The notes beneath the pieces are model-generated. The model made no database searches. It was not told where the DNA came from and saw nothing but the letters and a program-made list of their open reading frames with translations. Below are positions 1 through 17,463 of a DNA stretch of 41,540 bases, piece after piece. The number at the start of each line of letters is the position of its first letter. Within the stretch, counting starts at the first letter, position 1. Source of the stretch: an uncultured Candidatus Saccharibacteria bacterium (lineage in GTDB: Bacteria; Patescibacteriota; Minisyncoccia; GCA-002772825). The stretch is taken from NCBI GenBank assembly GCA_964363045.1, contig CAYIGM010000003.1, forward strand, positions 1 to 41,540, read 5' to 3'. Made by a program: the position numbers and the translations under genes.

Positions 1-1
1 G

Positions 2-721: not shown

Positions 722-847
722 TAGTATCTTTCTCGTCTCTCGCGAATTGATTGACTATCTAATGGTGGGTGGTAGTCTGAAAGTAGAGAAGTTTGGTCTT
801 TGAAAACTTAAACCATCCGCCTTGGCGGATAGAAGGGAGGTAGAGAG
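722..847 (+). promoter_or_regulatory. conserved leader copy A (promoter-like element + hairpin + SD) upstream of precursor peptide A
   Basis: TTGACT at 751-756, a 16-nt spacer, then TAGTCT at 773-778. Hairpin ATCCGCC/GGCGGAT at 815-830. SD GGGAGG at 835-840, 7 nt before the ATG at 848. Nearly identical to 9079-9204. Confidence 0.6.
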
Positions 848-991
848 ATGGAAACAAGCAAGATATTGGATGTCGTAGATAGGCATGTTGATGCACAAAA
901 TGCCCTAGGCAGTGATGGTCTTATCAGTGCTCATTCTGATGGCCCTGGGCACAACAACCACAGTGGAGACTCTGACCACGAAAACAGCTAG
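848..991 (+). CDS. 47-aa candidate RiPP precursor peptide A (METSKILDVVDRHVDAQNALGSDGLISAHSDGPGHNNHSGDSDHENS)
   Basis: Translated by hand and absent from the ORF track (below its length cut-off). Has a strong SD and sits directly upstream of a radical SAM/SPASM gene. The C-terminal half is rich in His/Asp/Ser/Gly/Asn and has no Cys. Confidence 0.65.
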   Translation: METSKILDVVDRHVDAQNALGSDGLISAHSDGPGHNNHSGDSDHENS

Positions 992-995
992 TCAA

Positions 996-1035
996 ATGAG
1001 AATGACTCTCCTGTAAAAAGGAGAGTCATTCTCAT
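996..1035 (+). promoter_or_regulatory. intercistronic 16-bp perfect stem-loop between precursor A and the rSAM gene
   Basis: ATGAGAATGACTCTCC (996-1011) pairs with GGAGAGTCATTCTCAT (1020-1035), with an 8-nt loop. The 3' arm contains the SD-like AGGAG and the ATG at 1034. Confidence 0.7.
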
Positions 1036-2125: not shown

Positions 2126-2155
2126 AAGAGGTAGTTAAAAACTACCTCTTTTTTG
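2124..2155. terminator. bidirectional hairpin terminator between convergent genes
   Basis: AAAAGAGGTAGT / ACTACCTCTTTT stem with a 5-nt loop and flanking A/T runs. Confidence 0.7.
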
Positions 2156-3122
2156 TAGATTTCAATATTTTTGCAATCTTATCTATGAAATCTTTATCGA
2201 TCGGTTTTTTAATATTTATATAATTTTCAGTTAAAGAGATAATACTCTGTAGTACATTTTGACGAAAATCTGAAAAAGTATTAATTGGTGTCGGCTCCGT
2301 TTTTTTTAAAATGTTACCTAAATATTTAATGCCAATATATCCTTTTGGAACAAGGCTTTCTATTATGATCTCATTTATTGCAGTTAGCGGACTCATTTTT
2401 TCTTTAAAAAATTTTGTTTCTAAATTTATTTTGTTTTTGATGATAGTTTGCCTGATTAATTTAAGATGCCTCTCGTCTATGAAACAGAGGTGACATATCT
2501 CATGGAATATGACTCCCAGCGCATATTTTGTTAAAGAATGGTTCCGTGTTAAATTATTTATCTCTAAGGTTATTCCGCTTTCTCCTATATTTGCTCCGCC
2601 ACCAAGTTTGTCATTGCAAGGATGAGCTAAGAGGTAAATTGTCACTTTTTTTAAACTTACCTTGCTACCAAAAAAAGATTTAAGTTGGTTAAGTATAATT
2701 TTTGTTCTTTTATTAGTTAACTCATTTTCTATAATTTTTTTGTTAGTGGAGATTATTTTTGAGCCAATCTTCCACCAAATATTGAATTTTTTTTCAAAAA
2801 TATCAAAAGATTTCTCAATGATCTCGATATCTCTCTGCTTAAGAATAGCCCGCGCCTTAATAATAGCTTCTTTTTTATTTTTGCTCGTTATGAAGGACTC
2901 CCCAAGGTAAGTTAATACCCCTGGTTTTATTTGTTTGAATCCATATGCTGTCATTATTTTTTTTATTTGTTTCAGGTTGTTTTTTTCTTTATTAGTTAAG
3001 GCACCTAGAACCTTGAGCCACTCTTCGTTATAGTTTTTTCTGCAAGAGTAATGCCATTCTGAAAGATTTGTTACAAAGAAGAAAAAATTACCTATTCTTG
3101 AGGAAGTTACATTAAATTTCAT
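2142..3122 (-). CDS. hypothetical protein with HExxH (HEICH) motif, possible zinc metallopeptidase
   Basis: 326-aa ORF containing GVIFHEICHLCF. Convergent with the rSAM gene. No family recognised beyond the motif. Confidence 0.45.
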   Translation of the reverse strand: MKFNVTSSRIGNFFFFVTNLSEWHYSCRKNYNEEWLKVLGALTNKEKNNLKQIKKIMTAYGFKQIKPGVLTYLGESFITSKNKKEAIIKARAILKQRDIEIIEKSFDIFEKKFNIWWKIGSKIISTNKKIIENELTNKRTKIILNQLKSFFGSKVSLKKVTIYLLAHPCNDKLGGGANIGESGITLEINNLTRNHSLTKYALGVIFHEICHLCFIDERHLKLIRQTIIKNKINLETKFFKEKMSPLTAINEIIIESLVPKGYIGIKYLGNILKKTEPTPINTFSDFRQNVLQSIISLTENYINIKKPIDKDFIDKIAKILKSTKKR

Positions 3123-3171
3123 AATAGCTTTAGTATATAATATGTAGCTTAAGTATCAAAGGTGGTATTCC

Positions 3172-3334
3172 CTAGTTCAACACCGAAGGCTCCGGCCTCG
3201 ATCTCTATGTGGCCAAGGAATTCATCAAGAAGCACAACGGCCGCTTTTGGGCGGAGAGCCCCGGGGAGGGGAAGGGGTCTACTTTCTTTGTAGAGTTGCC
3301 GAGGGGGAAGGGCGTGTTGCCGTTAATTTATTGA
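3172..3334 (+). pseudogene. histidine-kinase 3'-end fragment, copy 2 (G2 box to stop)
   Basis: Encodes FNTEGSGLDLYVAKEFIKKHNGRFWAESPGEGKGSTFFVELPRGKGVLPLIY*. An in-frame TAG lies immediately upstream (3173-3175) and there is no start codon. Near-identical DNA to 583-721. Confidence 0.85.
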
Positions 3335-3377
3335 TTATGAAATAAGTATATTTAGTTTAGTATTAGCAACAATCATT

Positions 3378-4142
3378 ATGAATATTATCGTCTACTCAAA
3401 AGAAGAGGGCTTTGAGGGTGGTGTTAAAAAACTTGGCGATGAATCTTCTCAATGTGGAAAAACTTGCGAGATTATCGAGATAAAAGAATTACCTGGCTTG
3501 TTAAAAAGGGGATATTTTGAGACTATACAATTTAACATATATTTTCTCTCTAGCGATTATCGCATATCACATTTTATAGATATTATTAAAAAGAAAAACC
3601 AAACTGTGGTAAATGAGGCATTTTTAATTCGCGGCATAATTGTATCAAAATTTGAGTCATTGGAAAGAGTGCGTCGCGGTGGTATACACATACCAAGGCA
3701 TATACAACTAACATACGATGATAATAATTTTTTAGATAAATTAATTATGCCGGTTTTTATAAAGTCCAAGAGTCCGAGAGGGTTAGTTATTCGCGTTAAT
3801 GATAAAAAGTCACTAAATAATAGACTTGAATCATTGCCCGAAAAACAGAATTATTATCTTGAAGAAAATGTAAAGAATAAAGATAATATTGAATTAAAAA
3901 TTTATTATATTAATGGTGATGCATACGCACAAGAAATATGTGGTGCCAATACCGATATTCCAAGTTGGTTTCGTGTCGTATTGGATAAGATATCAAAATG
4001 TACAGAGCTAGATGTGTTTTCCGCAGATTTTTTTATTGATTGGGGAAAAGAGGAGTACTATTGTTTTGATATTAATCACGCATCATCTTTTTATAAATCT
4101 GAGAAAGCAAGAGAAGTATTTATTTCTAAAATTTTAAAATAA
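3378..4142 (+). CDS. ATP-grasp-like protein (putative)
   Basis: 254-aa ORF whose layout resembles RimK-type ATP-grasp proteins (PVFIKSKSPRGLVIRV, YYLEENV, ELKIYYINGD, YCFDINHASSF). The assignment comes from motif resemblance only. Confidence 0.45.
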   Translation: MNIIVYSKEEGFEGGVKKLGDESSQCGKTCEIIEIKELPGLLKRGYFETIQFNIYFLSSDYRISHFIDIIKKKNQTVVNEAFLIRGIIVSKFESLERVRRGGIHIPRHIQLTYDDNNFLDKLIMPVFIKSKSPRGLVIRVNDKKSLNNRLESLPEKQNYYLEENVKNKDNIELKIYYINGDAYAQEICGANTDIPSWFRVVLDKISKCTELDVFSADFFIDWGKEEYYCFDINHASSFYKSEKAREVFISKILK

Positions 4143-4143
4143 T

Positions 4144-4836
4144 ATGGATTGGGAAGAGATGTATATGAGTAAAATTAGACGCGCTGGTGGAATAGATCGA
4201 TATCTTCAAAAAAAAGAAGAAAGATCGGCGGGCGCACTCATTGAGCGTATAAGAAAAAATATTAAACCAGGGTCTCGTATTTTAGAGATTGGAACCGGAA
4301 CAGGCGCAATTGGGGCACTGCTCACCAAATACGGCTTTGATATGACGGCAATTGATAACGATTCAAAAATGATAAAAATAGCTAAAAAAACTTTTTCATT
4401 ATTTAATAAGGTTGATAATGTTTATTTATATAATGCTAAAGATATTATTAAAAAATTTGGATTAAATTCGTTTGCTTGCGTAATATCTCATGGGATGCTG
4501 GAACATTATTCAGATATAGAGATAATTAACTTTTTGAAGATACAGCTTTCTGTAGCTCCTCTTGTGATATTTGTTATACCAACATCCTCTATGTCAAAAA
4601 AATATAGATCTAAAGGGATTGGAGATGAAAGATATTTATCAACACAATACTGGAGAGAATTGATCAGAAAAGATTTTTTTATTCAGTATATTTTTGGATT
4701 TGGATTTAAAGAAACAAATTTCCCGCAGTCTTTTGAAATACTATTAAAAAATAATACCATAGCGAGGTTACTTGCTCCATTATGCGGTATTAATGAATTT
4801 TGGATTATCGCTAAAGGGGATAATTTTACTTTTTGA
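4144..4836 (+). CDS. class I SAM-dependent methyltransferase
   Basis: Motif I ILEIGTGTGAIG followed by an acidic residue in AIDND. Tightly follows the preceding gene (2-nt gap). Confidence 0.75.
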   Translation: MDWEEMYMSKIRRAGGIDRYLQKKEERSAGALIERIRKNIKPGSRILEIGTGTGAIGALLTKYGFDMTAIDNDSKMIKIAKKTFSLFNKVDNVYLYNAKDIIKKFGLNSFACVISHGMLEHYSDIEIINFLKIQLSVAPLVIFVIPTSSMSKKYRSKGIGDERYLSTQYWRELIRKDFFIQYIFGFGFKETNFPQSFEILLKNNTIARLLAPLCGINEFWIIAKGDNFTF

Positions 4837-5239
4837 TGAGATGATAAATTTCCTTAAAATATTCTTTTAAGTTGTTATAACTTAATATCGAAGATACCTC
4901 ATTTATTGGTATCCATTTAATATTATCTTCTTTAAATTCCGGCCTTAAAAGGGTATCATCCTCAGATTGTACCAAAAACATTTTTGTCGAGATATTGCCT
5001 CCATTTGGATGTGTATAATTTATACCCGGCAATTCTCGTAGAATTATTATAGATAGCCCGGTCTCTTCTTTGATCTCTCTCCTCATTGTGGCGGTCGGAT
5101 TTTCACCCTCCTCAATGTGCCCCTTGGGAAAAGACCAATCATTTTGTTTTCCACGATAAAGCAGAGCAATTTTATTTTGATCATCTTTGCTCAAAATAAT
5201 GGCGCCGGCTTTTTGTGTTGATTTAGTTTTGATAATCAT
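4826..5239 (-). CDS. NUDIX hydrolase
   Basis: Nudix box GHIEEGENPTATMRREIKEETGL (GX5EX7REUXEEXGU). Confidence 0.85.
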   Translation of the reverse strand: MIIKTKSTQKAGAIILSKDDQNKIALLYRGKQNDWSFPKGHIEEGENPTATMRREIKEETGLSIIILRELPGINYTHPNGGNISTKMFLVQSEDDTLLRPEFKEDNIKWIPINEVSSILSYNNLKEYFKEIYHLIKK

Positions 5240-5289
5240 TACTATATAATAACTTATTTTAATATGTTTATAAATAAGTATTTTTATTC

Positions 5290-5327
5290 AAAAAAATCCC
5301 CCTTATTCTTGATAAAATAAGGGGGGT
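5290..5327 (-). terminator. rho-independent terminator after the P-loop gene
   Basis: CCCCCTTATT / AATAAGGGGG stem, followed on the minus strand by a T-run. Confidence 0.65.
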
Positions 5328-5352
5328 TAAGAAGTAAATTTAGATTAACGAT

Positions 5353-5889
5353 TCATTTGATTTTTCCGGTCACGGAAAGATACTCAAAAAGAGCTTTTGC
5401 TTCTAAAGCTTGTAATTCCTGTGATGCTATCCCGCAAAAAGACCACTCTATTTGAGAGAGAAGGCAGTGATAATCTTCTTTATCATGCCAATGTCGCGCT
5501 CTTCTATCATCAAGAGTTAGATCTTCGGGGCTACTCCTCTTTAGTCTTAGTTCTTTTGGAATAAATACGCCCGCCAAGGTGCTTTCGCTATCTACTTCTT
5601 TAATGGCTCGCCATTCATCGGGGGTATGAATAGCATCAAGAAGAATGACATTATTTGGGTTTCTGTCGTATTCAATTCTCCTTAGCAGGTGATGCATGAT
5701 TTCATACCCTCCCATCGTTCGATAGAGATTACGATACCAATCAGTCCATGCGGGTTCGTTTTCCCCAATGTCAGACCATTCTTTTAGTAGGGCTCGCTTC
5801 AAGAGCCATTTCCATCCAAATCTTTTTTCCATATATTGGCAGAGATGTGATTTTCCCGAACTATGAAAACCAGCAAATCCTATAATCAT
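5353..5889 (-). CDS. P-loop NTPase / small-molecule or nucleotide kinase-like protein
   Basis: Walker A GFHSSGKS at the N-terminus. 178 aa, similar in size to dephospho-CoA or nucleoside-monophosphate kinases. Confidence 0.5.
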   Translation of the reverse strand: MIIGFAGFHSSGKSHLCQYMEKRFGWKWLLKRALLKEWSDIGENEPAWTDWYRNLYRTMGGYEIMHHLLRRIEYDRNPNNVILLDAIHTPDEWRAIKEVDSESTLAGVFIPKELRLKRSSPEDLTLDDRRARHWHDKEDYHCLLSQIEWSFCGIASQELQALEAKALFEYLSVTGKIK

Positions 5890-5916
5890 TTTTTTCTCCT
5901 CATCTTACGGGTGAGA

Positions 5917-7011
5917 TTATTTTTTTTCTGCCATCGCGGCGGACATACAGTGTATTTCGGGGGTGCAGGAATTTCCCCAGAAGGAAGAAAGATTCTGTAT
6001 CATAAAATCCCCGACGCTGGACACTCCTAACGGCTCTAAAAAACCACAAGTATGAACACGGCCATTCGGAGATATGGAAAGTCCTCGCCGTCCAGCTTTA
6101 CACTTGTGCCATGCGAACGGGAGTTTGATTCTTGGGGCGGTATCAATTTCCTTGAGATAATGACCACTGACAATTCCCTTTGGGTCAGAAAGAAATGAAT
6201 CTAGTTTGATGCGCAGAACATTATAGTCATCAGTTGTCAGCATTTCTTGCGCATTACTTGCTCTTCCTGACGGGATTAACCTCCGGATCATTATTGGTAC
6301 ATTTCGGTCAGAGAAATATCGCACCACATGAGGGATTTCCAACAAATTGCTCTTCATGGCAACGAGGTTCACTCTTACAGGAATTTGAGCTTCTATTAAA
6401 AACTCAATACCCTTAAGAGTTTTTTGAAACATTCCAAGCCCTCGAATAGAATCGTGCCTATCTTCGAGGCCATCGACGCTGACAATCGCAACATTTAGAC
6501 CAATTTCGGAAAGACGCTTTGCGACTGTAGCATCGATAAGTGTTCCGTTTGTACCCAGTGATGCGCGTAAACCAGCTTCTCGGATCTTTAAAATGTAATC
6601 AAAGATTGAAGATATAAGAAGAGGCTCTCCTCCGGTGAAGCGAACTTCTTGAACTCCAGACATACAAAAATCCTCAAGGAGAGAGATTTTTCGCTCATGA
6701 GATAACTCGACAGGTAATGATTCACTAGAGTCATTAAGGCAATGAGTGCAGTGTAGATTGCATGCACGAGAGAGCTCAAAAAAGATTATATCTGGCGCGC
6801 TGAAATTATCAGCAGGGAGAGTGCTTGGTTCACGGATGATTACCTCGGTTGACGTCGTCTTCAATTCAATCCGAAGATTATAAGGAACAAGACCCTCGTT
6901 CTTTATCTGTTGGAATTCTAGTGGAGTAATGTATATCCTCTTTCCGGAGACTGCATTGCTGATTGTCCCGCCAAAAAATTCTTTTCTGAGTAATGATGCT
7001 TGTCTTTTCAT
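5917..7011 (-). CDS. radical SAM enzyme with partial SPASM/twitch C-terminal domain and an N-terminal extension
   Basis: CNLHCTHC cluster motif, GGEPLL, and C-terminal CKAGRRGLSISPNGRVHTC plus CTPEIHC. I moved the start to the ATG at 7011, which is preceded by AGGAGG; the ORF track uses the TTG at 7053. Confidence 0.8.
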   Translation of the reverse strand: MKRQASLLRKEFFGGTISNAVSGKRIYITPLEFQQIKNEGLVPYNLRIELKTTSTEVIIREPSTLPADNFSAPDIIFFELSRACNLHCTHCLNDSSESLPVELSHERKISLLEDFCMSGVQEVRFTGGEPLLISSIFDYILKIREAGLRASLGTNGTLIDATVAKRLSEIGLNVAIVSVDGLEDRHDSIRGLGMFQKTLKGIEFLIEAQIPVRVNLVAMKSNLLEIPHVVRYFSDRNVPIMIRRLIPSGRASNAQEMLTTDDYNVLRIKLDSFLSDPKGIVSGHYLKEIDTAPRIKLPFAWHKCKAGRRGLSISPNGRVHTCGFLEPLGVSSVGDFMIQNLSSFWGNSCTPEIHCMSAAMAEKK

Positions 7012-7046
7012 CTTTGTCCTCCTTAAGATAAGTTTATTTTTTTTAA

Positions 7047-7076
7047 TTGACAAAGTACATTTCTAATATATAGAAT
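7047..7076 (+). promoter_or_regulatory. sigma70-like promoter, TTGACA-18 nt-TAGAAT
   Basis: TTGACA at 7047-7052 and TAGAAT at 7071-7076, 9 nt upstream of the ATG at 7086. Confidence 0.55.
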
Positions 7077-7085
7077 GCATATATT

Positions 7086-7181
7086 ATGATTGAAAGTCAA
7101 CATCAAAAATTACAACAAGCGTTTGAGGCACAAAAAAATTGTTTGAATCTTTGTTATCGTAGTAGCTGGACGGCTTCGTGA
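7086..7181 (+). CDS. 31-aa Cys-containing small ORF (MIESQHQKLQQAFEAQKNCLNLCYRSSWTAS)
   Basis: Translated by hand. Lies directly downstream of a strong promoter and divergent from the rSAM gene. Its stop TGA overlaps the GTG at 7178 of the kinase fragment. Confidence 0.3.
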   Translation: MIESQHQKLQQAFEAQKNCLNLCYRSSWTAS

Positions 7182-7447
7182 AAATTATCTTTTCCCTGCC
7201 GGAGGGGAAGAACACCGCCCTTGTGTATATTAAAGATTCCGGCGCCGGCATGAGTGAAGAGACGGTACATAAAATCTTTGAGAAGTTCAACAGGGCTAAA
7301 GACGCCTCTAGGTTCAACACCGAAGGCTCCGGCCTCGGCCTCTATGTGGCCAAGGAATTCATCAAGAAGCACAACGGCCGCTTTTGGGCGGAGAGCCCCG
7401 GGGAGGGGAAGGGCTCAACCTTCTTCGTGGAATTGCCGCTTAGTTAG
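7167..7447 (+). pseudogene. histidine-kinase 3'-end fragment, copy 3 (G1 box to stop); retains an 89-aa ORF from the GTG at 7178
   Basis: Homologous to 448-721: VKIIFS..KDSGAGMSEETVHKIFEKFNRAKDASRFNTEGSGLGLYVAKEFIKKHNGRFWAESPGEGKGSTFFVELPLS*. TAGTAG stops lie just upstream in frame. HisKA and the N-box are missing. Confidence 0.8.
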
Positions 7448-7462
7448 AGAGGGTAAAATATT

Positions 7463-7606
7463 ATGAGAAATAAATTTGAAGAAGAAGGCTTAAAAGTAGA
7501 GAAAAAAGGACAGTTAGATTTTTTAAAAAATGTCCTTAATAGATATGATAAACTTTATTTTGATGGTGCAGCAGATGGTATTAAATATCTAAAGAACATA
7601 AAATGA
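7463..7606 (+). CDS. 47-aa small ORF (MRNKFEEEGLKVEKKGQLDFLKNVLNRYDKLYFDGAADGIKYLKNIK)
   Basis: Translated by hand. Starts 15 nt after kinase fragment 3 and overlaps the next start as ATGA (7603-7606). Confidence 0.35.
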   Translation: MRNKFEEEGLKVEKKGQLDFLKNVLNRYDKLYFDGAADGIKYLKNIK

Positions 7607-8170
7607 AAAATATTGAATTAAAAGTAGAAGTTGATAATTTTGATGATATTATCGGCGTGCTGAAAAAAAGGCGCTAAATATAATGGCGAATTGTTTCAAA
7701 TAGACACCTATTATCATTGTGACCAAGGAAGACTGAAGTTAAGGGAGATAAATCATTCTGTCTTTGAGCTAATTTTTTATAAGAGGCCAAATAAATTTAG
7801 ATCCAAGATCTCTGAATATCAAATCATAGATATGCCAAAAATAAGTCTCGGAAGGATAAAATTAGAGTTGTCATCTATATATGGTGAAAAGAATATTGTT
7901 CGAAAGAAAAGAAATTTATGGATATATAAGAATACAAGAATACATCTTGATGATGTCTATGGCCTTGGAGGATTCTTAGAAATTGAGACAGTGGTGAAAA
8001 ATATTGATATCAAGCAAGCTAGAAAGGAGCACAGTGAAATTATATCCCTGTTGAATCTCTTGGAATATAAAAAAATAGATAAGTCTTATGGGGATTTGAT
8101 CCCCGTCATTCCTGTTAGGAAAGATATTTCGGTAGATAATACAATGATGAAGTGTCCATTGTTTTCCTAA
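7603..8170 (+). pseudogene. CYTH-domain protein (CyaB/class IV adenylate cyclase-like), interrupted by a frameshift in an A7 run
   Basis: MKNIELKVEVDNFDDIIGVLKK reads into a stop at 7675-7677. Removing one A from 7663-7669 restores ...LKKGAKYNGELFQIDTYYHCDQGRLKLRE..., which continues as ORF 7691-8170. Confidence 0.65.
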
Positions 8171-8201
8171 AAACAAACAATATCTATAAGTAAAAGGTAC
8201 G

Positions 8202-8246
8202 CTCTTCGTGGAGCTACCGAGGGGGTAGTAGATTTGACGGTAGTTT
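8202..8246 (+). repeat. 30-nt stub of the kinase 3' end plus a decayed leader remnant
   Basis: CTCTTCGTGGAGCTACCGAGGGGGTAGTAG matches ..FVELPRG* and the GTAGTAG start of the leader. It is followed by ATTGACGGTAGT, which matches the leader's TTGAC and GGTAGT blocks. Confidence 0.6.
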
Positions 8247-8249
8247 TTA

Positions 8250-8258
8250 TGGTATAAT
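8250..8258 (+). promoter_or_regulatory. extended -10 box TGgTATAAT, 6 nt upstream of the mntA GTG
   Basis: TG at 8250-8251 and TATAAT at 8253-8258. There is no SD before the start at 8265. Confidence 0.5.
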
Positions 8259-8264
8259 ACACCT

Positions 8265-8555
8265 GTGGAAAAGGATATTATTATTGAAAAATTAAATAAA
8301 ACCCTGCCGATTTTAAAGGAAAAATACAATGTGAAAAGCATGGGTGTCTTCGGCTCGTATATAAGAAATGAGGCAAAGGCAGGGAGTGATCTGGATATTT
8401 TAGTCACATTTGAAAAACCGATAGGATTGTTAAAATTTATAGAGCTGGAAAATTATCTTTCGGATATAACAGGAATAAAAGTTGATTTGGTATCTAAAAG
8501 GGCGCTTAAGCCCAGAATCGGAAAACAGATATTAGCGGAAGTTGTTAATATATAA
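8265..8555 (+). CDS. mntA: MntA-type nucleotidyltransferase antitoxin
   Basis: GVFGSYIRNEAKAGSDLDILV (GSxxR..SDxD polymerase-beta NTase motif), 96 aa, directly abutting a DUF86 gene. Confidence 0.85.
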   Translation: MEKDIIIEKLNKTLPILKEKYNVKSMGVFGSYIRNEAKAGSDLDILVTFEKPIGLLKFIELENYLSDITGIKVDLVSKRALKPRIGKQILAEVVNI

Positions 8556-8912
8556 GTGATGAAAAGAGATTATCTGGATTATCTTCAAGATATTATTGAC
8601 TCAATAAATGACATTGAGAGCTTTGTTAGTGGAATGAATTTTAATTCGTTTGAAAAAGATAAAAAGACTTTAAATGCAGTGGTAAGGAGTTTGGAAATAA
8701 TAGGTGAAGCTGTTAAAAAAATACCGGATGAGGTAAAAAATAAATACACTAACATTCCATGGAAAAATATGTCGGGAATGAGGGATAAATTGATCCACGA
8801 ATATTTTGGAATTGATGAAGATATCGTTTGGAGGGTTGCAGTAGAGGAATTGCCACCACTAAAGCCGTTTTTTGAAAAAATTTTAACAGAAACGGAAGGA
8901 GAAAATCTTTAA
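8556..8912 (+). CDS. hepT: HepT (DUF86/HEPN) toxin
   Basis: HEPN RX4H motif in RDKLIHEYFGID, 118 aa. The real start is probably the ATG at 8559. Confidence 0.85.
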   Translation: MMKRDYLDYLQDIIDSINDIESFVSGMNFNSFEKDKKTLNAVVRSLEIIGEAVKKIPDEVKNKYTNIPWKNMSGMRDKLIHEYFGIDEDIVWRVAVEELPPLKPFFEKILTETEGENL

Positions 8913-9081
8913 GAAATTCAATAGGGCTAAAGACGCCTCCAAGTTCAACACCGAAGGCTCCGGTCTCGGCCTCTATGTGGCCAAAGAGTTCATCACTAAA
9001 CACAATGGCCGCCTCTGGGCGGAGTCAGCTGGCGAAGGAAAGGGGAGCACCTTCTTCGTGGAGTTGCCGAGTGGGAAGTAG
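8902..9081 (+). pseudogene. histidine-kinase 3'-end fragment, copy 4 (more diverged)
   Basis: Encodes (E)KIFKKFNRAKDASKFNTEGSGLGLYVAKEFITKHNGRLWAESAGEGKGSTFFVELPSGK*. There is no start codon. The homology begins inside the last codons of hepT, in another frame. Confidence 0.85.
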
Positions 9082-9204
9082 TATCTTTCTTGTCTCTCGC
9101 GAATTGATTGACGATCTAATGGGGGGTGGTAGTCTGAAAGTAGAGAAGTTTGGTCTTTGAAAACTTAAACCATCCGCCTTGGCGGATAGAAGGGAGGTAG
9201 AGAG
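9082..9204 (+). promoter_or_regulatory. conserved leader copy D upstream of precursor peptide D
   Basis: Aligned from the TAG (9079-9204 versus 722-847) I count 3 mismatches in 126 nt, and the last 78 nt are identical. TTGACG at 9108-9113, TAGTCT at 9130-9135, hairpin at 9172-9187, GGGAGG at 9192-9197. Confidence 0.6.
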
Positions 9205-9348
9205 ATGAAGAAAACGAATCTAATGCCATTGATTCTTGATTTGGCGGAAAAAGTCGATGTCGTCTACGACAAGAGTGGTAGACAGGTTTGTTTCGCTGGT
9301 ACAACTCAGGGAACTTATGACGAACCTGACTCCGCTGGTCCCGACTAA
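9205..9348 (+). CDS. 47-aa candidate graspetide precursor D (MKKTNLMPLILDLAEKVDVVYDKSGRQVCFAGTTQGTYDEPDSAGPD)
   Basis: Translated by hand. Has a strong SD and sits immediately upstream of an MvdD/MdnC-like ATP-grasp gene. The C-terminus is rich in Thr/Ser plus Asp/Glu and contains TTQGTYDE. Confidence 0.7.
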   Translation: MKKTNLMPLILDLAEKVDVVYDKSGRQVCFAGTTQGTYDEPDSAGPD

Positions 9349-9353
9349 GCACA

Positions 9354-9397
9354 TTAGTTAGGATGGGCGAGGACACTTCCTCTCCCATCCTAACTAA
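9354..9397 (+). promoter_or_regulatory. intercistronic long stem-loop between precursor D and the ATP-grasp gene
   Basis: TTAGTTAGGATGGG (9354-9367) pairs with CCCATCCTAACTAA (9384-9397), with further inner pairing (one mismatch). There is no T-run. Confidence 0.65.
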
Positions 9398-9427
9398 CAC
9401 TTAACTAATAAAAAGGAGGTGATGGAC

Positions 9428-10357
9428 ATGATTTTAATAATCGGAAATAGTTCAGACAAGGCCAAGACCGTTGTAGATGAAATCAAGAAAATAAGCAAAA
9501 AGAAAGTCATCATCTTTAAAGCCGACAAATGCATAGAGGGAGAAGCTATAGGATTTTCCCTTATTAATGACAAGGCGATGTTATTTGCCGATATAAGTGG
9601 AAAAGATTTTGATTTAAATGAAGCAACATCCGTATGGTACTGGAAGCCGTTGTTGCCCAAGGTCTTGAGAACTATAGAGCCAGCAAGACATCAAATATTC
9701 ATCCATAGGCAGTTTTTAACAATATGGCGTTCAATTGCCAGTTGCCTATCTGACAGGATGTGGATCAATGACTACTACAAACTGTTAGAAGCCGAGAATA
9801 AGCCATACCAAATAAAGCTGGCTTCAGAAATCGGATTTGATATTCCAGATACTCTTATCACTTCTGATCCGAAAAGAGCAATAGATTTTTGGGAATATTG
9901 TGATAAGAAAATGATAATTAAAACTTTAGCTCTCAGTCAGACTGAAGATAGTATGATCTACACTAACAAAGTCACAGAGGAGATAATGCTAAAAATAGAA
10001 AGGCTGAGGTCGTCGCCAGTTATTATGCAGAAGCTAGTCCCCACAAAATACGGACTAAGGATAACTGTAGTGGGTGATGATATTTTCCCCGCTAGAGTTG
10101 AGAGTGACAGTGAAATCGATTGGCGTAGAAGTGAGATTAAACTCAAAAAATATCATCTACCTGGAGAAATTAAAGATAAATGTTTCTGCATGGTAAGGAA
10201 GTTAGGACTAAAGTATGGTTGTATAGATATGATACTCACACCTGATGGTAAATATGTTTTTCTGGAAATAAATCCAAATGGACAGTGGAGTTTTGTCGCA
10301 GAAAGGACGGGTATGCCGATTGGAGAGGCCATCGCACATTTGCTAGTTCACGAGTGA
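9428..10357 (+). CDS. MvdD/MdnC-family ATP-grasp ligase (graspetide / omega-ester peptide synthetase-like)
   Basis: SVWYWKP, ENKPYQIKLA, VIMQKLV, RITVVGDDIF, DWRR and CIDMILTPDGKYVFLEINPNGQW. The start is placed at the ATG 8 nt after AAGGAGG; the ORF track starts at the GTG at 9419. Confidence 0.8.
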   Translation: MILIIGNSSDKAKTVVDEIKKISKKKVIIFKADKCIEGEAIGFSLINDKAMLFADISGKDFDLNEATSVWYWKPLLPKVLRTIEPARHQIFIHRQFLTIWRSIASCLSDRMWINDYYKLLEAENKPYQIKLASEIGFDIPDTLITSDPKRAIDFWEYCDKKMIIKTLALSQTEDSMIYTNKVTEEIMLKIERLRSSPVIMQKLVPTKYGLRITVVGDDIFPARVESDSEIDWRRSEIKLKKYHLPGEIKDKCFCMVRKLGLKYGCIDMILTPDGKYVFLEINPNGQWSFVAERTGMPIGEAIAHLLVHE

Positions 10358-10360
10358 AAA

Positions 10361-10389
10361 GGGAGAAACATTTCGTTTCTCCCTTTTTT
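10361..10389 (+). terminator. rho-independent terminator
   Basis: GGGAGAAAC / GTTTCTCCC stem with a 5-nt loop, followed by TTTTTT. Confidence 0.8.
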
Positions 10390-10434
10390 GATTATTAAGA
10401 TCAAAATGCTAAAATAATACTATGAAATAATACT

Positions 10435-10971
10435 ATGATTAGAAACAAGAAATTACAACAGAAAGTCTTAAAAATGGCATCAATGGATCAAAAAGCAAGA
10501 AAACAGTTCGTAAACGATAGCCAGAATAAGAAATTAGCTAAGCGTATTTATAATTGTGATACTAAAAATATTATAAAAGCAAAAGAAATTATTAAGAAAT
10601 ATGGTTGGCCAACTTTTGATTTAGTCGGGAAAAGAGCTTCCGATGCTTTTTGGCTATTAGTCCAGCACTCTGATAGGGATATAAAGTTTCAAAAGAGGTG
10701 TTTGGCTCTTTTGAGAGAAGTGGTAGAAAATAAGCAGGCTCACTCCAAAAATTTGGCTTTCCTTACTGACAGGATTTTATCAGCTGAAAGTAAAAAGCAA
10801 AAATTTGGTACACAATTTATCTTTAAGAACGGAAGGGCTGTTGTAAAGCCGGTTCAGGACAGAAAGAATCTCAATAAAAGAAGAATCAAATATGGGTTAA
10901 ATACAATAGAGGAAAGAACAAAAGAGATAAATAAAGAGTACTCTAAGATGTTATCGTTGATGAAGAAATAA
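10435..10971 (+). CDS. hypothetical protein (resembles the DUF6624-type helical family)
   Basis: 178-aa ORF with GWPTFDLVGKRASDAFWLLVQHSD and LTDRIL motifs. The family assignment is from memory and is weak. Confidence 0.35.
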   Translation: MIRNKKLQQKVLKMASMDQKARKQFVNDSQNKKLAKRIYNCDTKNIIKAKEIIKKYGWPTFDLVGKRASDAFWLLVQHSDRDIKFQKRCLALLREVVENKQAHSKNLAFLTDRILSAESKKQKFGTQFIFKNGRAVVKPVQDRKNLNKRRIKYGLNTIEERTKEINKEYSKMLSLMKK

Positions 10972-10982
10972 ATAATATTTTG

Positions 10983-11028
10983 CTTAAACACTCAAATCCG
11001 CCGCGGCGGATAGAAAGGAGGTAGAGAG
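10983..11028 (+). promoter_or_regulatory. partial leader copy E (hairpin + SD only)
   Basis: CTTAAAC..ATCCGCCGCGGCGGATAGAAAGGAGGTAGAGAG matches the 3' third of leaders A and D. The stem is kept and the loop differs. Confidence 0.6.
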
Positions 11029-11055
11029 ATGGAAACAAGATGGTTTACTTGCTAG
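11029..11055 (+). pseudogene. 8-aa ORF METRWFTC*, probably the truncated remnant of a precursor-A-like gene
   Basis: The first 11 nt (ATGGAAACAAG) are identical to precursor A, after which the sequence diverges and stops. Confidence 0.45.
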
Positions 11056-11090
11056 TTTACTTATGTTTTTGAGCAGATTAAACTAGATAT

Positions 11091-12116
11091 ATGAATGAAT
11101 CGAGGGTAAAAATCAAATTATCTTATATAACAGGTCTAAGGGATGTTGTCTTAGGTGAGATAAATCAGTATTCAAAGCTTCATACACTCAAAGAAATTAA
11201 TGATTCTGTCTATTTGGATTATGTAGAAGACCTCAATGAGATTAAGAGATTAAGAAGTGTGTCTCGAGCTTACATTGTGTTGCAGGATTTTAAATACAAT
11301 CCACTTTATATTTCCAATCACAAATCAATCGTAGGTAATTTAATAGACATGGTCATCAATGAAGACAAAAATGCGTTTAAAACTTTTAAGATAACATGCG
11401 CCGGATCAAGCTCTCAGGAAGTTCGTAGTATTGCTGAATACATACAGATAACATATGGAGTGATGGAAAAAGAAGAAGCGGACATGAAAATACATATTAT
11501 AAAATCAGATGACGTGTGGGAAATAGGTATTCAGATCACTCATCGGCCACTTTCTGTACGAGGCTACAAAGTTAAAAATATGAGCGGGGCGATGGACCCG
11601 ACTATTGCATATGCTGTAAATTCATTTTGCGCGTTAGAGATGGCAAAAACCTATCTGAATGTTTTTTCCGGTAGCGCTACATTGCTTATTGAGGCAAGTC
11701 AATCTTATCCAGACTTAAAGGATTTAGGTGGTTTTGATAATGATAAAAAACATATTTCTTTAGCGGTGCAAAATATTAAGAAGGCCGGATTGATTAAAAA
11801 GATCAAACTAAAAGAGGCGGATATTTTTGATAAGCCAGATTTTGGGAAGTTTGATGCGGTAACATCTGATTTGCCGTTTGGTATGTCTATATCAAATGAC
11901 GAAGATTTGGAGGAGTTGTATAAAAGTTTTGTAGAATATTGCCAAGATGTATTAAGCCCGGATGGAAGGCTGGTTATTTATACGAATGAGAGCGAACTTC
12001 TGGAAAAGACTATTCAAGAATCGGAGTTTAAGATAGTAAAAACTCTAGAATTAAAATTCATAACATCGGTGGGCGCATATCTTCGCCCAAAGATTTTTGT
12101 GTGTAGGTTAAAATAA
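11091..12116 (+). CDS. THUMP-like domain + class I SAM-dependent methyltransferase (UPF0020 / RlmL-Trm14-like)
   Basis: AMDPTIAYAVNSF, FSGSATLLIE and the catalytic-loop-like SDLPFG, with an N-terminal ~150-aa ferredoxin/THUMP-like region. Confidence 0.55.
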   Translation: MNESRVKIKLSYITGLRDVVLGEINQYSKLHTLKEINDSVYLDYVEDLNEIKRLRSVSRAYIVLQDFKYNPLYISNHKSIVGNLIDMVINEDKNAFKTFKITCAGSSSQEVRSIAEYIQITYGVMEKEEADMKIHIIKSDDVWEIGIQITHRPLSVRGYKVKNMSGAMDPTIAYAVNSFCALEMAKTYLNVFSGSATLLIEASQSYPDLKDLGGFDNDKKHISLAVQNIKKAGLIKKIKLKEADIFDKPDFGKFDAVTSDLPFGMSISNDEDLEELYKSFVEYCQDVLSPDGRLVIYTNESELLEKTIQESEFKIVKTLELKFITSVGAYLRPKIFVCRLK

Positions 12117-12179
12117 GAGCGATGGTTGAATGACAAGAGGCAATATCTTTTATAAAATATATAAAAAGCTTTAATTCAT

Positions 12180-12302
12180 ATGGGTAAGTTCGTTAAAATA
12201 GGCTTCGGAGGATCTTATCGCTTCTCTATGAAAAATTGGAATAAATTAAAAAAAAGGTGGGCATCTATCGGCAAAAAATTTTATGAAAAAGAGCTTTTAT
12301 AA
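12180..12302 (+). CDS. 40-aa basic small ORF (MGKFVKIGFGGSYRFSMKNWNKLKKRWASIGKKFYEKELL)
   Basis: Translated by hand in a 230-nt intergenic gap. No homology recognised. Confidence 0.15.
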   Translation: MGKFVKIGFGGSYRFSMKNWNKLKKRWASIGKKFYEKELL

Positions 12303-12349
12303 AAAGATAATGGAATTTATTAAGAAAAATGATAGAATATTGATAATAT

Positions 12350-12814
12350 ATGCAAAAATTTCAAGCGGCGGAATCCCATATACATGTTATTGCCCGCGGG
12401 TTCCTTGTTCGTGGGAATGAAATTATTTTATGTAAGCCTAAAAATGCAGATTATTTTTTTCTCCCCGGAGGACATGTTGAAGATGGAGAATTTGCAAGAA
12501 CGGCACTTCTAAGAGAGTTAACCGAAGAAATTGGCGATAGCAATTATAAAATCAATTCTTTTATCGGAGTATGTGAAAATATTTTTCCCATAGATGAAAA
12601 TATATCTCAGCATGAAATAAATATTGTATTTGAAGTTGATGTTCCGAAAAATATTAAAATTGATAGCAAAGAATATCATATTGAATTTGTGATTATTAAA
12701 AAAGAAGATTTAAAAAAATATAAAATTTTACCTGCCTCACTTAAGGAAGGTCTTTTGGAGTGGTTTGAAGATATGAAACCTTTTTTAAAGGAAATCGATG
12801 TTTCTAATGAATAA
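12350..12814 (+). CDS. NUDIX hydrolase
   Basis: Nudix box GHVEDGEFARTALLRELTEEIGD. Confidence 0.85.
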   Translation: MQKFQAAESHIHVIARGFLVRGNEIILCKPKNADYFFLPGGHVEDGEFARTALLRELTEEIGDSNYKINSFIGVCENIFPIDENISQHEINIVFEVDVPKNIKIDSKEYHIEFVIIKKEDLKKYKILPASLKEGLLEWFEDMKPFLKEIDVSNE

Positions 12815-12847
12815 TTATATATATAGATATTTAAAATAATATAAATA

Positions 12848-13294
12848 ATGGATATAAATTTAAAAAAGGCATTAAGAATGACGATTCTCAAGCTAGAGGG
12901 TTTGGAATATCTTGTGATAGGATCGATGAGCCTTTATTTGCATGGAATTAATGTGTCACCAAGGGATATAGATATTATAACTACTCCGGAAATATTAGAG
13001 GAGATCATTGTTCGTCTGAAAGAATACCAAACGAAAGAAGTGTATTTCGATAAGACCGAGGGTAGAAATTCATGGAGGACATTTTTTGATATTGAGGGTA
13101 TTGAAGTGGAGGTTCTTGGTAATGTGGATAATCTCGCTTGGTCAAAAAATATTTCAGGTAATAAAGTTGTCGTTGAGTGTGATGGTATATTTATACCTTG
13201 TGTGTCTCTTGAAGCTTCTATTATTGCTTATGAGAAGATGCTCCGTTTGAAAAAGGTTGGATTGATAAAGAATTTCTTAAATAAGCCATGTTGA
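12848..13294 (+). CDS. nucleotidyltransferase-fold protein (putative)
   Basis: LVIGSMSLYLHGINVSPRDIDIITT resembles the GS..DxD minimal NTase motif. Confidence 0.4.
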   Translation: MDINLKKALRMTILKLEGLEYLVIGSMSLYLHGINVSPRDIDIITTPEILEEIIVRLKEYQTKEVYFDKTEGRNSWRTFFDIEGIEVEVLGNVDNLAWSKNISGNKVVVECDGIFIPCVSLEASIIAYEKMLRLKKVGLIKNFLNKPC

Positions 13295-13330
13295 TTTGAC
13301 ACTATCCTCGGTGTGTATTAGTATAAAAAT

Positions 13331-13453
13331 ATGAACAGAAATTATCACAAATTTAATAAGAAATTAAGAATCGCAATGACCTGTGGCTCGTTTGTCGCAT
13401 CTGGCGATGAACAGTTTTTATTCAACCGTGATAGTTTTAATCCTCTTATATAA
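13331..13453 (+). CDS. 40-aa small ORF (MNRNYHKFNKKLRIAMTCGSFVASGDEQFLFNRDSFNPLI)
   Basis: Translated by hand and followed by a strong terminator. No homology recognised. Confidence 0.2.
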   Translation: MNRNYHKFNKKLRIAMTCGSFVASGDEQFLFNRDSFNPLI

Positions 13454-13479
13454 AATAAAATTTATTTTAAAGAATTAGA

Positions 13480-13510
13480 AAAACCCCGGCTGGATGAAAG
13501 CCGGGGTTTT
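13480..13510 (+). terminator. rho-independent terminator
   Basis: AAAACCCCGGC / GCCGGGGTTTT stem with a 9-nt loop. Confidence 0.75.
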
Positions 13511-13557
13511 ATCTAGTAAAAAATAGTTCGTTAACAATCTAAACAGGGAGAAGAAAG

Positions 13558-14157
13558 ATGAAGAAGATTGAAGAGATGAAAAAGCCGGACGAAAAGAGAG
13601 TGATTTTTCTCAAAGGGAAGAAAGTTGTGCTTAGGCCTTTATGCAAAGAGACGGATTTGGATTCAATTTATCGGTGGATTAACGACCCGGAAGTGAATAA
13701 GTATGTGGAAGGGTATTTGCCGATGACCAAGGAAGCCGAGGCGGAGTGGATTGAAAAGGTCTCTAAAAACAAGGACATAATTCTCGCCATAGAGACATTT
13801 GGAGGCAGGCATATCGGCTCAATGGGTTTGCATAACATAAAGTGGAAAGACCGCATCGCCACCACTGGCGCTATGATAGGGGAGAAAGATTGTTGGGGCA
13901 AGGGCTATGGCACTGATGCGAAAATGATACTTCTTAATTATGCCTTTAATACGCTAAACTTGAGGAAGATATTCTCGTCCGTATTTAGTTTCAATAAGAG
14001 GAGTATCGCTTATAGTCTTAAATGCGGATACGAAGTAGAAGGATTGCTTAAGAGGCAGAGGTTTGTAAATGGCCGATACTACGACGAGGTGCTTCTCGGT
14101 GTCTTTAAGAAGAAGTGGCAATCCTTGTGGAGAGAGTATAAGAAAGGAATTAAATAG
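13558..14157 (+). CDS. GNAT family N-acetyltransferase (RimJ/RimL-like)
   Basis: Typical layout: LRPL..D...IYRWINDPEV, IGSMGLHNI, WGKGYGTDA. SD GGGAG lies upstream. Confidence 0.75.
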   Translation: MKKIEEMKKPDEKRVIFLKGKKVVLRPLCKETDLDSIYRWINDPEVNKYVEGYLPMTKEAEAEWIEKVSKNKDIILAIETFGGRHIGSMGLHNIKWKDRIATTGAMIGEKDCWGKGYGTDAKMILLNYAFNTLNLRKIFSSVFSFNKRSIAYSLKCGYEVEGLLKRQRFVNGRYYDEVLLGVFKKKWQSLWREYKKGIK

Positions 14158-14180
14158 CTCCACTGGCTGAAGTCCAGCCT

Positions 14181-14213
14181 AAGACCCCGCGATAATATCA
14201 ACGGGTCTTTTTT
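14181..14213 (+). terminator. probable terminator hairpin
   Basis: AAGACCC / GGGTCTT stem followed by TTTTT. The loop is rather long (15 nt). Confidence 0.45.
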
Positions 14214-15373: not shown

Positions 15374-15631
15374 GTGTGCGGGCATTGCGGGAAGAGAGTC
15401 TCCGGCAACGGCTACACTAACCACTGCCCCAAGTGTTTGTGGAGTAAGCATGTGGATGTGAATCCGGGCGACAGGAGCGCGGATTGCGGAGGGATGATGA
15501 AGCCCGTCTCTTTTGAGCAGAAAAGCGGCGGGTGGCGAATCCTCCACAAGTGTGAAAAATGCGGGCATAAAAAAATAAATAGACTCTCAAAGGACGATGA
15601 CTTTGATATAATGTTTGGCATTCAATGTTGA
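15374..15631 (+). CDS. RNHCP-domain zinc-binding protein
   Basis: CGHCG...TNHCPKCLWSKHVD..GDRSADCGGMM..HKCEKCG matches the RNHCP domain pattern. GTG start. Confidence 0.7.
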   Translation: MCGHCGKRVSGNGYTNHCPKCLWSKHVDVNPGDRSADCGGMMKPVSFEQKSGGWRILHKCEKCGHKKINRLSKDDDFDIMFGIQC

Positions 15632-17463
15632 ACATATTAAGTTCATGTTATAATTATCTCGTTGTGATAGAAAATAAAAAATTAAAAAATAATAAAAAAT
15701 TCTACGCGGGGTTTATAATCATCTTGCGCTATCTGGCTGAGTATAAGAGTGAGATAATCTTGCTTTCTGTACTTGGCGTTATCTCCGCTTTGGCAAACGG
15801 AGCGGTGCCTTATCTAGTGGGGCGTCTTTTTGATACAATTATTTCTCCGGGGGAGATTTTCGCGGGCACATCAATAGAGATGCCCTTATGGCTCTTCTTT
15901 GTTATCATATGGGGGATTGCACAGCTCGTGGCTAATGTAGTTGATTGGAGGAGCAATCTAAAAAGTGCCATGCTTGGAGAAGATATTTTCACCAGTTATA
16001 TGGCGAAAGGTTTTAGTTGCCTTTTAGGACTCCCTTTGTCCTTTCACAAAACGAATAAAATGGGAGAGATAGGTGATAGGATAAATAAAGCCGCGCACTC
16101 TCTTGAGACTATTTCTAATAATGTCGTTATTTATCTGGCGCCGCAATTTTTGAGTATTTTTGTCGCGTTGACAATAGCGTTTTTAATTAACTGGGTCTTG
16201 GCTTTGGTTATGCTCGGTGGTTTGATTGTCTATGTCATCATCCTTTTATATATTGTGCGTCCCCTCGCGCATCTCCAGAGAAAAGGGCATCGGGCATATG
16301 GTAAGGCATACGGTGATGCTTATGACGCTATTTTTAATGCTCAGACGGTGAAGCAGGCTGTTTCTGAAAAATATGAGCAAAGAAAAATGTATAATAATTT
16401 CAAGGTGAAAGCTATGGGGATTTGGGTGAATATTTTCCGTGCTTGGCAGGGGCTCAGCTTCTATCAGCGGTTGGTTATCCTGGCAACCCAATTAGCCATT
16501 TTTTCATTATCCGTCATCTTTATTCAAGCGGGCAAAATGACCGTCGGTGAGCTAGTGATGTTTAATGGTTATGCGATGGTGCTTTTTGGCCCTTTTGTTA
16601 TCCTCGGCAAAAATTGGCAGACAATCCAAAACGGAATGATCGCCGTTGAGCGAGGTGAGAAGATATTATCTACTCATGCTGAAAATTATGAGCCTGAGAA
16701 TGCAGTAGTACTTGATGATATAAAAGGGGAGATTGAATTCAAGGATGTCTTTTTCTCATACGATAAGAAGGGAAAGTATGTCTTGAATAATATTAATTTT
16801 AAAGTGAATCCCGGGGAAATAATAGCGCTTGTCGGTGAATCGGGCGTGGGCAAGAGCACCTTGATAGATATCATCTCCGGGTATTATTTTGCGGATAAGG
16901 GGAAAGTCTTGGTGGATGGACATAATGTGAAGCGGTTGAATTTAAAATTTCTTCGTTCTAAGATTGGCGTGGTGCCTCAGGAGGTGGTGCTCTTCAACGA
17001 AGCGATAAAGACGAATATCAAGTATGGCAGTTTTGGCGCCTCTCTTGATGATGTGAAAAGAGCGGCGGAAGATGCACATTGCGCCGGCTTTATAGAGAAA
17101 TTCCCCAAGAAATGGGACCAGGTTGTGGGAGAGAGGGGAGTGAAGCTCTCCGTAGGGCAGAAGCAGAGAGTGGCTATCGCCCGAGCGATATTGCGCGATC
17201 CGAAGATATTGATACTTGACGAACCGACTTCCGCGCTTGACGCCAAGTCAGAGAAAATAATCCAGGAGTCCTTGGAAAGATTGATGAAAAGGAAGACAAC
17301 TTTCATCATTGCGCATCGCTTAAGTACGGTGAGGAAAGCGGATAAGATACTTGTCTTTGAGAAGGGGGAGATTGTTGAAACCGGCAAACACGATGAACTT
17401 ATAAAAAAGAAAGATGGCGTGTACAGGAATCTTCATGAATTTCAAGTAGGTTTATCCGCTTAA
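15625..17463 (+). CDS. ABC transporter, fused permease/ATP-binding exporter (MsbA/type I exporter-like)
   Basis: Six-TM N-terminal half. Walker A GESGVGKST, signature LSVGQKQR, Walker B ILILDEPTSALD. The exact start is uncertain. Confidence 0.9.
   Translation: MLNILSSCYNYLVVIENKKLKNNKKFYAGFIIILRYLAEYKSEIILLSVLGVISALANGAVPYLVGRLFDTIISPGEIFAGTSIEMPLWLFFVIIWGIAQLVANVVDWRSNLKSAMLGEDIFTSYMAKGFSCLLGLPLSFHKTNKMGEIGDRINKAAHSLETISNNVVIYLAPQFLSIFVALTIAFLINWVLALVMLGGLIVYVIILLYIVRPLAHLQRKGHRAYGKAYGDAYDAIFNAQTVKQAVSEKYEQRKMYNNFKVKAMGIWVNIFRAWQGLSFYQRLVILATQLAIFSLSVIFIQAGKMTVGELVMFNGYAMVLFGPFVILGKNWQTIQNGMIAVERGEKILSTHAENYEPENAVVLDDIKGEIEFKDVFFSYDKKGKYVLNNINFKVNPGEIIALVGESGVGKSTLIDIISGYYFADKGKVLVDGHNVKRLNLKFLRSKIGVVPQEVVLFNEAIKTNIKYGSFGASLDDVKRAAEDAHCAGFIEKFPKKWDQVVGERGVKLSVGQKQRVAIARAILRDPKILILDEPTSALDAKSEKIIQESLERLMKRKTTFIIAHRLSTVRKADKILVFEKGEIVETGKHDELIKKKDGVYRNLHEFQVGLSA

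Follow-up and report, generated by a model that had tools for sequence, protein, structure and literature searches.

A probable group 42 graspetide cluster with a conserved DUF6624 gene on a contig of an uncultured groundwater Patescibacteria bacterium

A window of 41,540 nt, which appears to be a whole contig (CAYIGM010000003.1, GenBank assembly GCA_964363045.1) of an uncultured bacterium from Hainich groundwater (0.1 µm filter fraction), carries what we consider, with a probability of about 85%, to be a three-gene graspetide cluster of group 42, belonging to a Patescibacteria (Parcubacteria-like) organism and acting by the ring-forming mechanism proposed below. Its genes encode a short precursor peptide, an ATP-grasp ligase and a DUF6624 protein (Table 1). 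The first two had been singled out in a sequence-only reading of the same DNA as a graspetide precursor and a macrocyclase of MvdD/MdnC type. Both the open reading frame (ORF) of 47 codons at 9205–9348 (forward strand), whose translation MKKTNLMPLILDLAEKVDVVYDKSGRQVCFAGTTQGTYDEPDSAGPD is exactly as quoted there, and the adjoining ATP-grasp gene with the motif FLEINPNGQW (residues 281–290; here and below ligase residues are counted from GTG 9419) were found in place. The cluster is a divergent new member of a catalogued, chemically uncharacterised group of RiPPs (peptides that are made on ribosomes and modified after translation).

The assignment of the ligase was borne out by comparisons with known enzymes. 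NCBIfam models of RiPP maturases gave the best matches (MvdC, E 8.7e-58; SAV_5884 type, 2.5e-56; MvdD, 3.8e-50; grasp-with-spasm, 6e-24), with bit scores of 196 for TIGR04185, 191 for TIGR04187 and 171 for TIGR04184, versus 45 bits for rimK_fam (E 1.1e-11). Six structures were matched in the PDB and all of them are graspetide-type ATP-grasp enzymes: AMdnB at the top (E 3.6e-41, 144 bits), then MdnB, MdnC, CdnC, the MvdD-like pre-ATP-grasp structure 9bou and, as the most distant one, PsnB (2.7e-14, 56 bits); no RimK or GshB structure was matched in this sequence search. Homologues registered at E < 1e-5 numbered 940, the top ones coming from metagenome-assembled genomes of Parcubacteria, Paceibacteria and Patescibacteria, and in 25 aligned homologues R214, D234-W235-R236, D270, E283 and N285-Q289 are invariant. 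Arg213 of PsnB, by which the ring-forming carboxylate is recognised, and its D(F/W)R loop were shown to be essential, and the loop is conserved across graspetide ligases (bioRxiv 10.1101/2021.03.09.434688). R214 of the window enzyme lies 20 residues before the DWR triplet, which is the spacing between Arg213 and DFR233-235 in PsnB, and by motif and spacing these residues presumably correspond to each other. The translation start of the ligase is most likely ATG 9428, because AGGAGG is found at 9414–9419, homologues start with MILIIGN and independent assemblies call a protein of 309 residues.

It is hardly credible that this protein is a RimK- or glutathione-synthetase-type enzyme with a non-RiPP substrate and that the small ORF is incidental. 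The sole Pfam match above the cut-off is indeed the generic RimK ATP-grasp domain (24.6 bits), and some sources label the homologues “glutathione synthase/RimK-type ligase”, but the RiPP-maturase models score about 150 bits above RimK, every PDB match is a graspetide ligase, the enzyme has the D(F/W)R loop typical of graspetide ligases and the small ORF co-varies with the ligase over about 30 loci. The check by profile models that the sequence-only reading had proposed, with clustering among RimK or GshB proteins as the adverse outcome, was thus negative. All these data support a RiPP macrocyclase of MvdC/MvdD type, as far as it can be judged from homology, rather than a RimK-like ligase.

For the precursor no matches were found in Pfam, even at E up to 10, or in NCBIfam. 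Its family was delimited from small ORFs situated 5' of the ligase in loci that had been fetched from collections of genomes and metagenomes. The survey of related genomes for the same leader and core, also suggested earlier, returned homologous precursors 5' of a homologous ligase in about 30 loci, mostly of Patescibacteria. All of them constitute a single family with two subfamilies, which share the leader P(L/F)ILxF and the core TTxGTxx[DE]xD across 29 loci. Subfamily A, including the window peptide, follows the pattern ..PLILD(L/F)xE..(V/I)(V/I)Y....Q...GT(T/S)xGTxx(E/D)xD(S/T)xGxD, and subfamily B the pattern ..(L)PFILxFLExxxGAxxxTTSGT(Y/W)xDxDxxDxx. From its closest relative, L161 (ligase identity 89%, precursor MKKANLTPLILDLAEKVDVVYDKNGKQVCFAGTTQGTYDEPDSAGPD), the window peptide differs by 19 synonymous and 4 non-synonymous codons, and from L162 (84%, MSKNNLTPLILDLAEKVGVVYDRSGNQVCFAGTTQGTYDEPDSAGPD) by 22 and 6, respectively, which indicates clear purifying selection. 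The synonymous excess, together with the recurrence of homologous precursors 5' of the homologous ligase, argues that the peptide is not a chance ORF. Its ATG is preceded by the ribosome-binding site (RBS) GGGAGG at 9192–9197, with 7 nt between them. In most subfamily A peptides a pair AG, GG or GA stands directly 5' of the core TT and is a possible cleavage site.

Core conservation was read from the alignment of 29 precursors. Positions T33, T/S34 and T37 are kept and G36 is invariant; among the acids, D42 is invariant, position 40 (E40 in the window) is occupied by D or E in 26 of the 29 sequences, and the third one is D47 in subfamily A and position 45 in subfamily B, while conservation of S43 and G45 is limited to subfamily A. 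The family signature thus combines three acids with three or four hydroxyl donors, and its core has no Lys. Since the core of the window peptide has no Lys either, lactams are not expected. From this signature we infer that the single ligase would make up to three macrolactones, which may be nested or interlocked.

This pattern of conservation did not sustain the earlier proposal that the single TTQGTYDE forms a hairpin of the plesiocin type (group 2) with two esters, T34-D39 inside T33-E40. In plesiocin the TTxxxxEE cores, four repeats per precursor, carry the esters T31-E38 and T32-E37 formed by both Glu residues (bioRxiv 10.1101/2021.03.09.434688); the window peptide has TTxxxxDE, and 6 of the 10 sequences in subfamily A have D39, which speaks in favour of such a hairpin. 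However, position 39 varies over the family, being D, S, T, H, N, G or W, and relatives with clearly orthologous ligases have one of the last six residues there, with E40, D42 and D47 retained. Moreover, PsnB is the most remote of the PDB matches and required both Glu of the native TTxxxxEE core for efficient activity, plesiocin is multi-repeat, whereas here the core is single, and the leader is microviridin-like rather than plesiocin-like. Taken together, this makes the plesiocin-type hairpin very improbable.

The third gene was recognised by Pfam as DUF6624. A search with the window protein (tblastn) found it directly 3' of the ligase in about 35 of the fetched loci; gene calls include it in the close relatives L161, L162, L163 and L164 and in L192, where the order precursor, ligase, DUF6624 is kept. 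The sequence-only reading had placed the end of the module at a clean terminator behind the ligase. The terminator is real, but the module continues beyond it into this conserved gene. Residues G65, Q77-H78, A108, D112-R113, T126-Q127 and R150 are invariant in the DUF6624 alignment and all of them are retained in the window protein. Its AlphaFold2 model, mainly helical with one small beta hairpin, is confident (predicted local distance difference test, pLDDT, 95.6; predicted template modelling score, pTM, 0.89), and comparison of this model with the PDB and BFVD gave no significant match (best E 1.5 and 0.7); in the sequence search of the PDB nothing was found under E 0.06. The modelled protein may be a new-fold enzyme or an obligatory partner that completes maturation.

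Group 42 of graspetides comprises 22 clusters, 82% of them with PF20329 and many from candidate phyla (Carter, Ramesh, Saad, Mubarik & Mitchell, ACS Chem Biol 2026, PMC13097080). Its representative (Fig. S19 of that paper), from Candidatus Komeilibacteria and with DUF6624 in the cluster, has the precursor MKKNSTPKPLILD(R)LRQPIEDIYKGGEKAMEGFTTHGTPNDPDSGGTD, abbreviated ...PLILD...TTHGTPNDPDSGGTD. This locus was recovered among those fetched (L192), and its precursor aligns with the window peptide over both leader and core. Its ligase (P0038) is 42% identical to that of the window over 307 residues, without gaps and with 264 bits (BLASTP). By our own approximate conversion this corresponds to an alignment score of about 74 (264 x 0.301 - log10(309 x 309)), which exceeds the threshold of 70 used for the group 42 network (PMC13097080).

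Based on these data one can propose the following sequence of events. The 47-residue precursor would be transcribed from its own promoter, and the strong stem-loop 3' of its stop codon probably holds precursor mRNA above that of the ligase. The leader helix PLILDL, a counterpart of the microviridin PFFARFL, would dock on the ATP-grasp ligase, which with ATP would phosphorylate side-chain carboxylates of the core, the conserved E40, D42 and D47 being the candidates. The hydroxyls of T33, T34 and T37, and possibly S43, would then attack the acyl phosphates, giving the omega-ester macrolactones. DUF6624 may work on the peptide or together with it, be it as a tailoring enzyme, a partner protein or a processing/immunity factor.

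Several observations weigh against the cluster and mechanism proposed. The terminator separates DUF6624 from the ligase, and its transcription may be independent. Genes for a leader peptidase or a peptidase-containing exporter are absent from the neighbourhood of the module, and the ABC transporter at 15625–17463 has Pfam matches of ABC-transporter type only, with no peptidase domain. Chemistry is on record for no group 42 member. The best structural relatives of the ligase are amide-forming enzymes of MdnB type, whereas the core lacks Lys, and all ligase scores stay under the cut-offs curated for the MvdC, MvdD and SAV_5884 equivalogs, so that membership among ribosomal peptide maturases holds at the clade level only. 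Finally, three assemblies of the same population (L193, L194 and L196) all begin at window position 9153, within a near-identical repeat; the join of 8902–9152 to the module is thus supported by no contig other than this one and could reflect a choice made in assembly.

Table 1. Coordinates of the graspetide module and of the elements associated with it in the window
Feature	Coordinates	Strand	Description
Precursor peptide	9205..9348	+	47 aa; leader motif PLILDL; predicted core TTQGTYDEPDSAGPD; assigned by homology, codon differences and group 42 match
ATP-grasp graspetide synthetase	9428..10357	+	309 aa from ATG 9428; ORF open from GTG 9419
DUF6624 protein	10435..10971	+	178 aa; Pfam PF20329, E 4.6e-22; conserved third gene of the module
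Promoter-like site of the precursor	9108..9135	+	Putative; TTGACG, 16 nt, TAGTCT; read from sequence, under scan threshold
Stem-loop between precursor and ligase	9354..9397	+	20-bp arms, 4-nt loop, no T run; inverted repeat 95% complementary, -34 kcal/mol
Intrinsic terminator after ligase	10356..10388	+	14-pair stem followed by T run
Promoter-like site before DUF6624	10388..10415	+	TTGATT, 16 nt, TAAAAT, upstream TG; consensus match only
Left 44-nt direct repeat	9172..9215	+	Hairpin ATCCGCCTTGGCGGAT, GGGAGG, ATG and first codons; 91% identity to 815-858 copy
Right 44-nt direct repeat	10996..11039	+	93% identity to 815-858 copy; followed by 8-codon stump METRWFTC and stop

Regulatory elements of the module were compared with those of its relatives. 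A -35 box TTGAC(A/G) and TAnnnT, again with 16-nt spacing, recur 5' of the precursors in L161 and L162. The stem-loop between precursor and ligase had escaped the sequence-only reading. Each of the eight loci examined has a strong hairpin at this place, though of differing sequence, and in several of them a T run follows. Such hairpins between precursor and ligase are the usual way to hold the precursor transcript in excess, and that of the window is probably an attenuator or an mRNA stabiliser. A terminator scan of the 2.4-kb region registered 6 terminator-like sites versus 1.1 expected. Since Rfam scans of the whole window (gathering thresholds) and of 8850–9450 (E up to 1) gave nothing meaningful, the 5' untranslated region (UTR) and the hairpins match no known RNA family.

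The module resides in a variable island, which occupies positions 1–14200 with an intact histidine kinase gene (11–721) at its beginning and is followed by housekeeping genes from about 14300. MNT/HEPN, CYTH, two NUDIX, GNAT and methyltransferase genes as well as a second radical SAM gene, on the minus strand (5917–7053), are also found there; an exact-sequence look-up of the HEPN protein, aimed at the junction 5' of the module, returned no record. Fragments of the kinase 3' end are scattered over the island (3175–3313, 7171–7447, 8203–8231 and 8902–9078; 84–92% identity), and copies of this end together with the downstream intergenic DNA (84–93% identity) span 545–858, 8902–9215, 10996–11039 and the fragment sites. 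The 126-nt region 3' of the kinase is nearly identical at 722–850 and 9082–9207 and includes promoter-like boxes, the hairpin ATCCGCCTTGGCGGAT, the RBS and ATG. The last 44 nt of this region make up the 44-nt repeat, which is present in three copies, the first one at 815–858, and the other two bracket the graspetide module.

Behind the first copy another RiPP-like pair is situated. It consists of a 47-residue peptide, METSKILDVVDRHVDAQNALGSDGLISAHSDGPGHNNHSGDSDHENS (848–991), a hairpin of 16 bp and, behind it, a maturase of the radical SAM/SPASM kind (1034–2125), for which the best NCBIfam matches are the anaerobic sulfatase maturase (anSME), DynA, DarW and cyclophane-forming maturases. The 126-nt 5' region that serves the graspetide precursor presumably drives this pair as well. 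Independent assemblies confirmed that kinase, peptide and radical SAM enzyme follow each other in this order (L197 and L198), and likewise the order from the graspetide module through methyltransferase and NUDIX onward (L193 and L194, 99.8% identical). The only other ATP-grasp-like ORF of the window is weak and distant: 254 codons at 3378–4142, directly behind the kinase fragment 3175–3313, with a weak match to the RimK family (E 4e-4). It is followed by an S-adenosylmethionine-dependent methyltransferase, and the stretch 3378–4836 may be a further, very divergent ATP-grasp module.

In the relatives the module was found in different surroundings. L162 has an alpha/beta-hydrolase-like gene before it and a Y1 transposase of IS200/IS605 type (2822–3496) directly after DUF6624; in L163 it is placed between PPDK and DUF5663 genes, and in L192 it adjoins an integrase-containing region. 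L161 is a 2141-bp contig with precursor, ligase and DUF6624 only, whose first and last 21 nt are identical, and it is either circular or repeat-flanked. The hairpin-plus-RBS pattern of the window had no exact match in any fetched locus, L161 having a similar hairpin with ATCCGCCACGGCGGAT 3' of its DUF6624 gene, and thus the exact repeat seems to be specific to the window genome among these loci. A tRNA-targeted island was ruled out, since a scan of the window revealed no tRNA genes; an integron-like cassette array was also rejected, as the window has no integrase and the repeat search yielded no attC-type repeats.

The scattered copies of the kinase end resemble scars left by serial recombination or insertion events at a single site, and the contexts of the relatives together with the ends of L161 are suggestive of a mobile or recombining cassette. 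One may tentatively go further and suppose that the graspetide module is an exchangeable unit of a RiPP cassette site, where different modules of precursor and maturase would be inserted behind one conserved kinase-proximal promoter and 5' UTR, and gained or lost by recombination between the repeated copies of the 5' UTR and of the kinase 3' end, with DUF6624 completing maturation. The presence of two modules (ATP-grasp and radical SAM/SPASM, 848–2125), the bracketing repeats, the four kinase 3' fragments and the stump are consistent with this scenario, as are the identical contig ends of L161 and the IS200-like transposase beside the module in L162; nevertheless, we regard it as rather unlikely. 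The same environment, namely the truncated kinase fragments, the 8-codon peptide stump and the assorted accessory genes, could mean that the module has become a decaying relic within a graveyard of cassettes and that its product is no longer made. This is very improbable, because all three ORFs are intact, all invariant residues of the ligase and DUF6624 are retained, the peptide has a strong synonymous excess relative to its relatives, and the promoter, ribosome-binding sites and terminator are undamaged. An intact group 42 cluster is the preferred interpretation.

Two loci from the wider family deserve mention. One is L165 (IMG/VR UViG_3300029811_000049), on a contig of 38.5 kb that is classified as viral. 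It carries the subfamily B precursor MKGIMPFILLFMVEYEGATCATTCGHFNSIDSHDYT together with a ligase of 41% identity to that of the window, and no DUF6624 gene was found in the fetched 5.6-kb stretch around the ligase. In the other, L013 (Chitinophagaceae chromosome OZ241749.1), a precursor of subfamily B type, ..KPFILNFLTYRKGVTAPTTTGTWPDPDASDNS, and a ligase have a DUF6624 gene close by, encoded on the opposite strand. Since the latter genome belongs to Bacteroidota, the wider family is not confined to candidate phyla.

The locus leaves existing knowledge unchanged, and its value is that of a compact, intact and easily synthesised three-gene example. Most graspetides characterised to date inhibit proteases, and their ring systems are cage-like or hairpin-like; members of group 42 and their candidate-phyla relatives were never made or analysed, so that both the ring connectivity and the role of DUF6624 are at stake. 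The latter recurs in several graspetide groups and combines a confident predicted fold with the lack of a counterpart in the PDB and the viral structure library. The bacteria that carry the cluster are ultra-small, have minimal genomes and probably depend on hosts themselves, and keeping of such a cluster suggests a role in interactions with hosts or competitors. Its repeat-bracketed setting hints at how graspetide modules move.

Among known systems, that of plesiocin (PsnA2/PsnB) resembles the window module in that one ligase makes all Thr-acid esters, as the window ligase would do, and differs by its conserved acid at the place of the variable D39 and by four repeats instead of a single core. 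Microviridin biosynthesis (MdnA; MdnB/MvdC; MdnC/MvdD) provides the closest solved structures and the closest curated profile models, and by analogy the same kind of chemistry, side-chain macrocyclisation, may be expected here; its leader motif PFFARFL is resembled by PLILDL/PFILxFL at the same position. Unlike the window precursor, which adjoins one ligase, microviridin uses two, its core TxKxPSDx(E/D)(E/D) contains Lys for the lactam, whereas the window core has neither Lys nor KYPSD, and no GNAT or ABC transporter gene adjoins the window module. Graspetide loci of candidate-phyla-radiation bacteria, with ATP-grasp branches 1 and 2, were reported earlier (Makarova et al. 2022, Biol Direct, PMC8939145). 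They share with the window the leader signature Phhx(1,2)h, which is fitted by P8-I10-L11 of the window peptide, and their cluster 23 carries the motifs GWP...WLLVQH...YGTQF of the window DUF6624 and is DUF6624. Precursor cluster 1865 of the same study, from Giovannonibacteria (...LPFILGFLEYREGAMAPTTCGIITDIDAYDAA; PMC8939145), aligns with subfamily B, sister to that of the window peptide; the window subfamily differs from it by a 9-residue insertion between leader and core and by the position of the third conserved acid (+14 from the first Thr versus +12). Within group 42 the window peptide and ligase represent a divergent lineage, with closest relatives (84–89% identity) only on unannotated metagenome contigs, and the repeat-flanked setting behind a histidine-kinase fragment is not described in PMC13097080; what the window module has in common with the group is the 47-residue precursor of the pattern MKK..PLILD..(I/V)Y..G..TTxGTxx[D/E]PDSxGxD, the DUF6624 gene immediately 3' of the ligase and hosts from candidate phyla.

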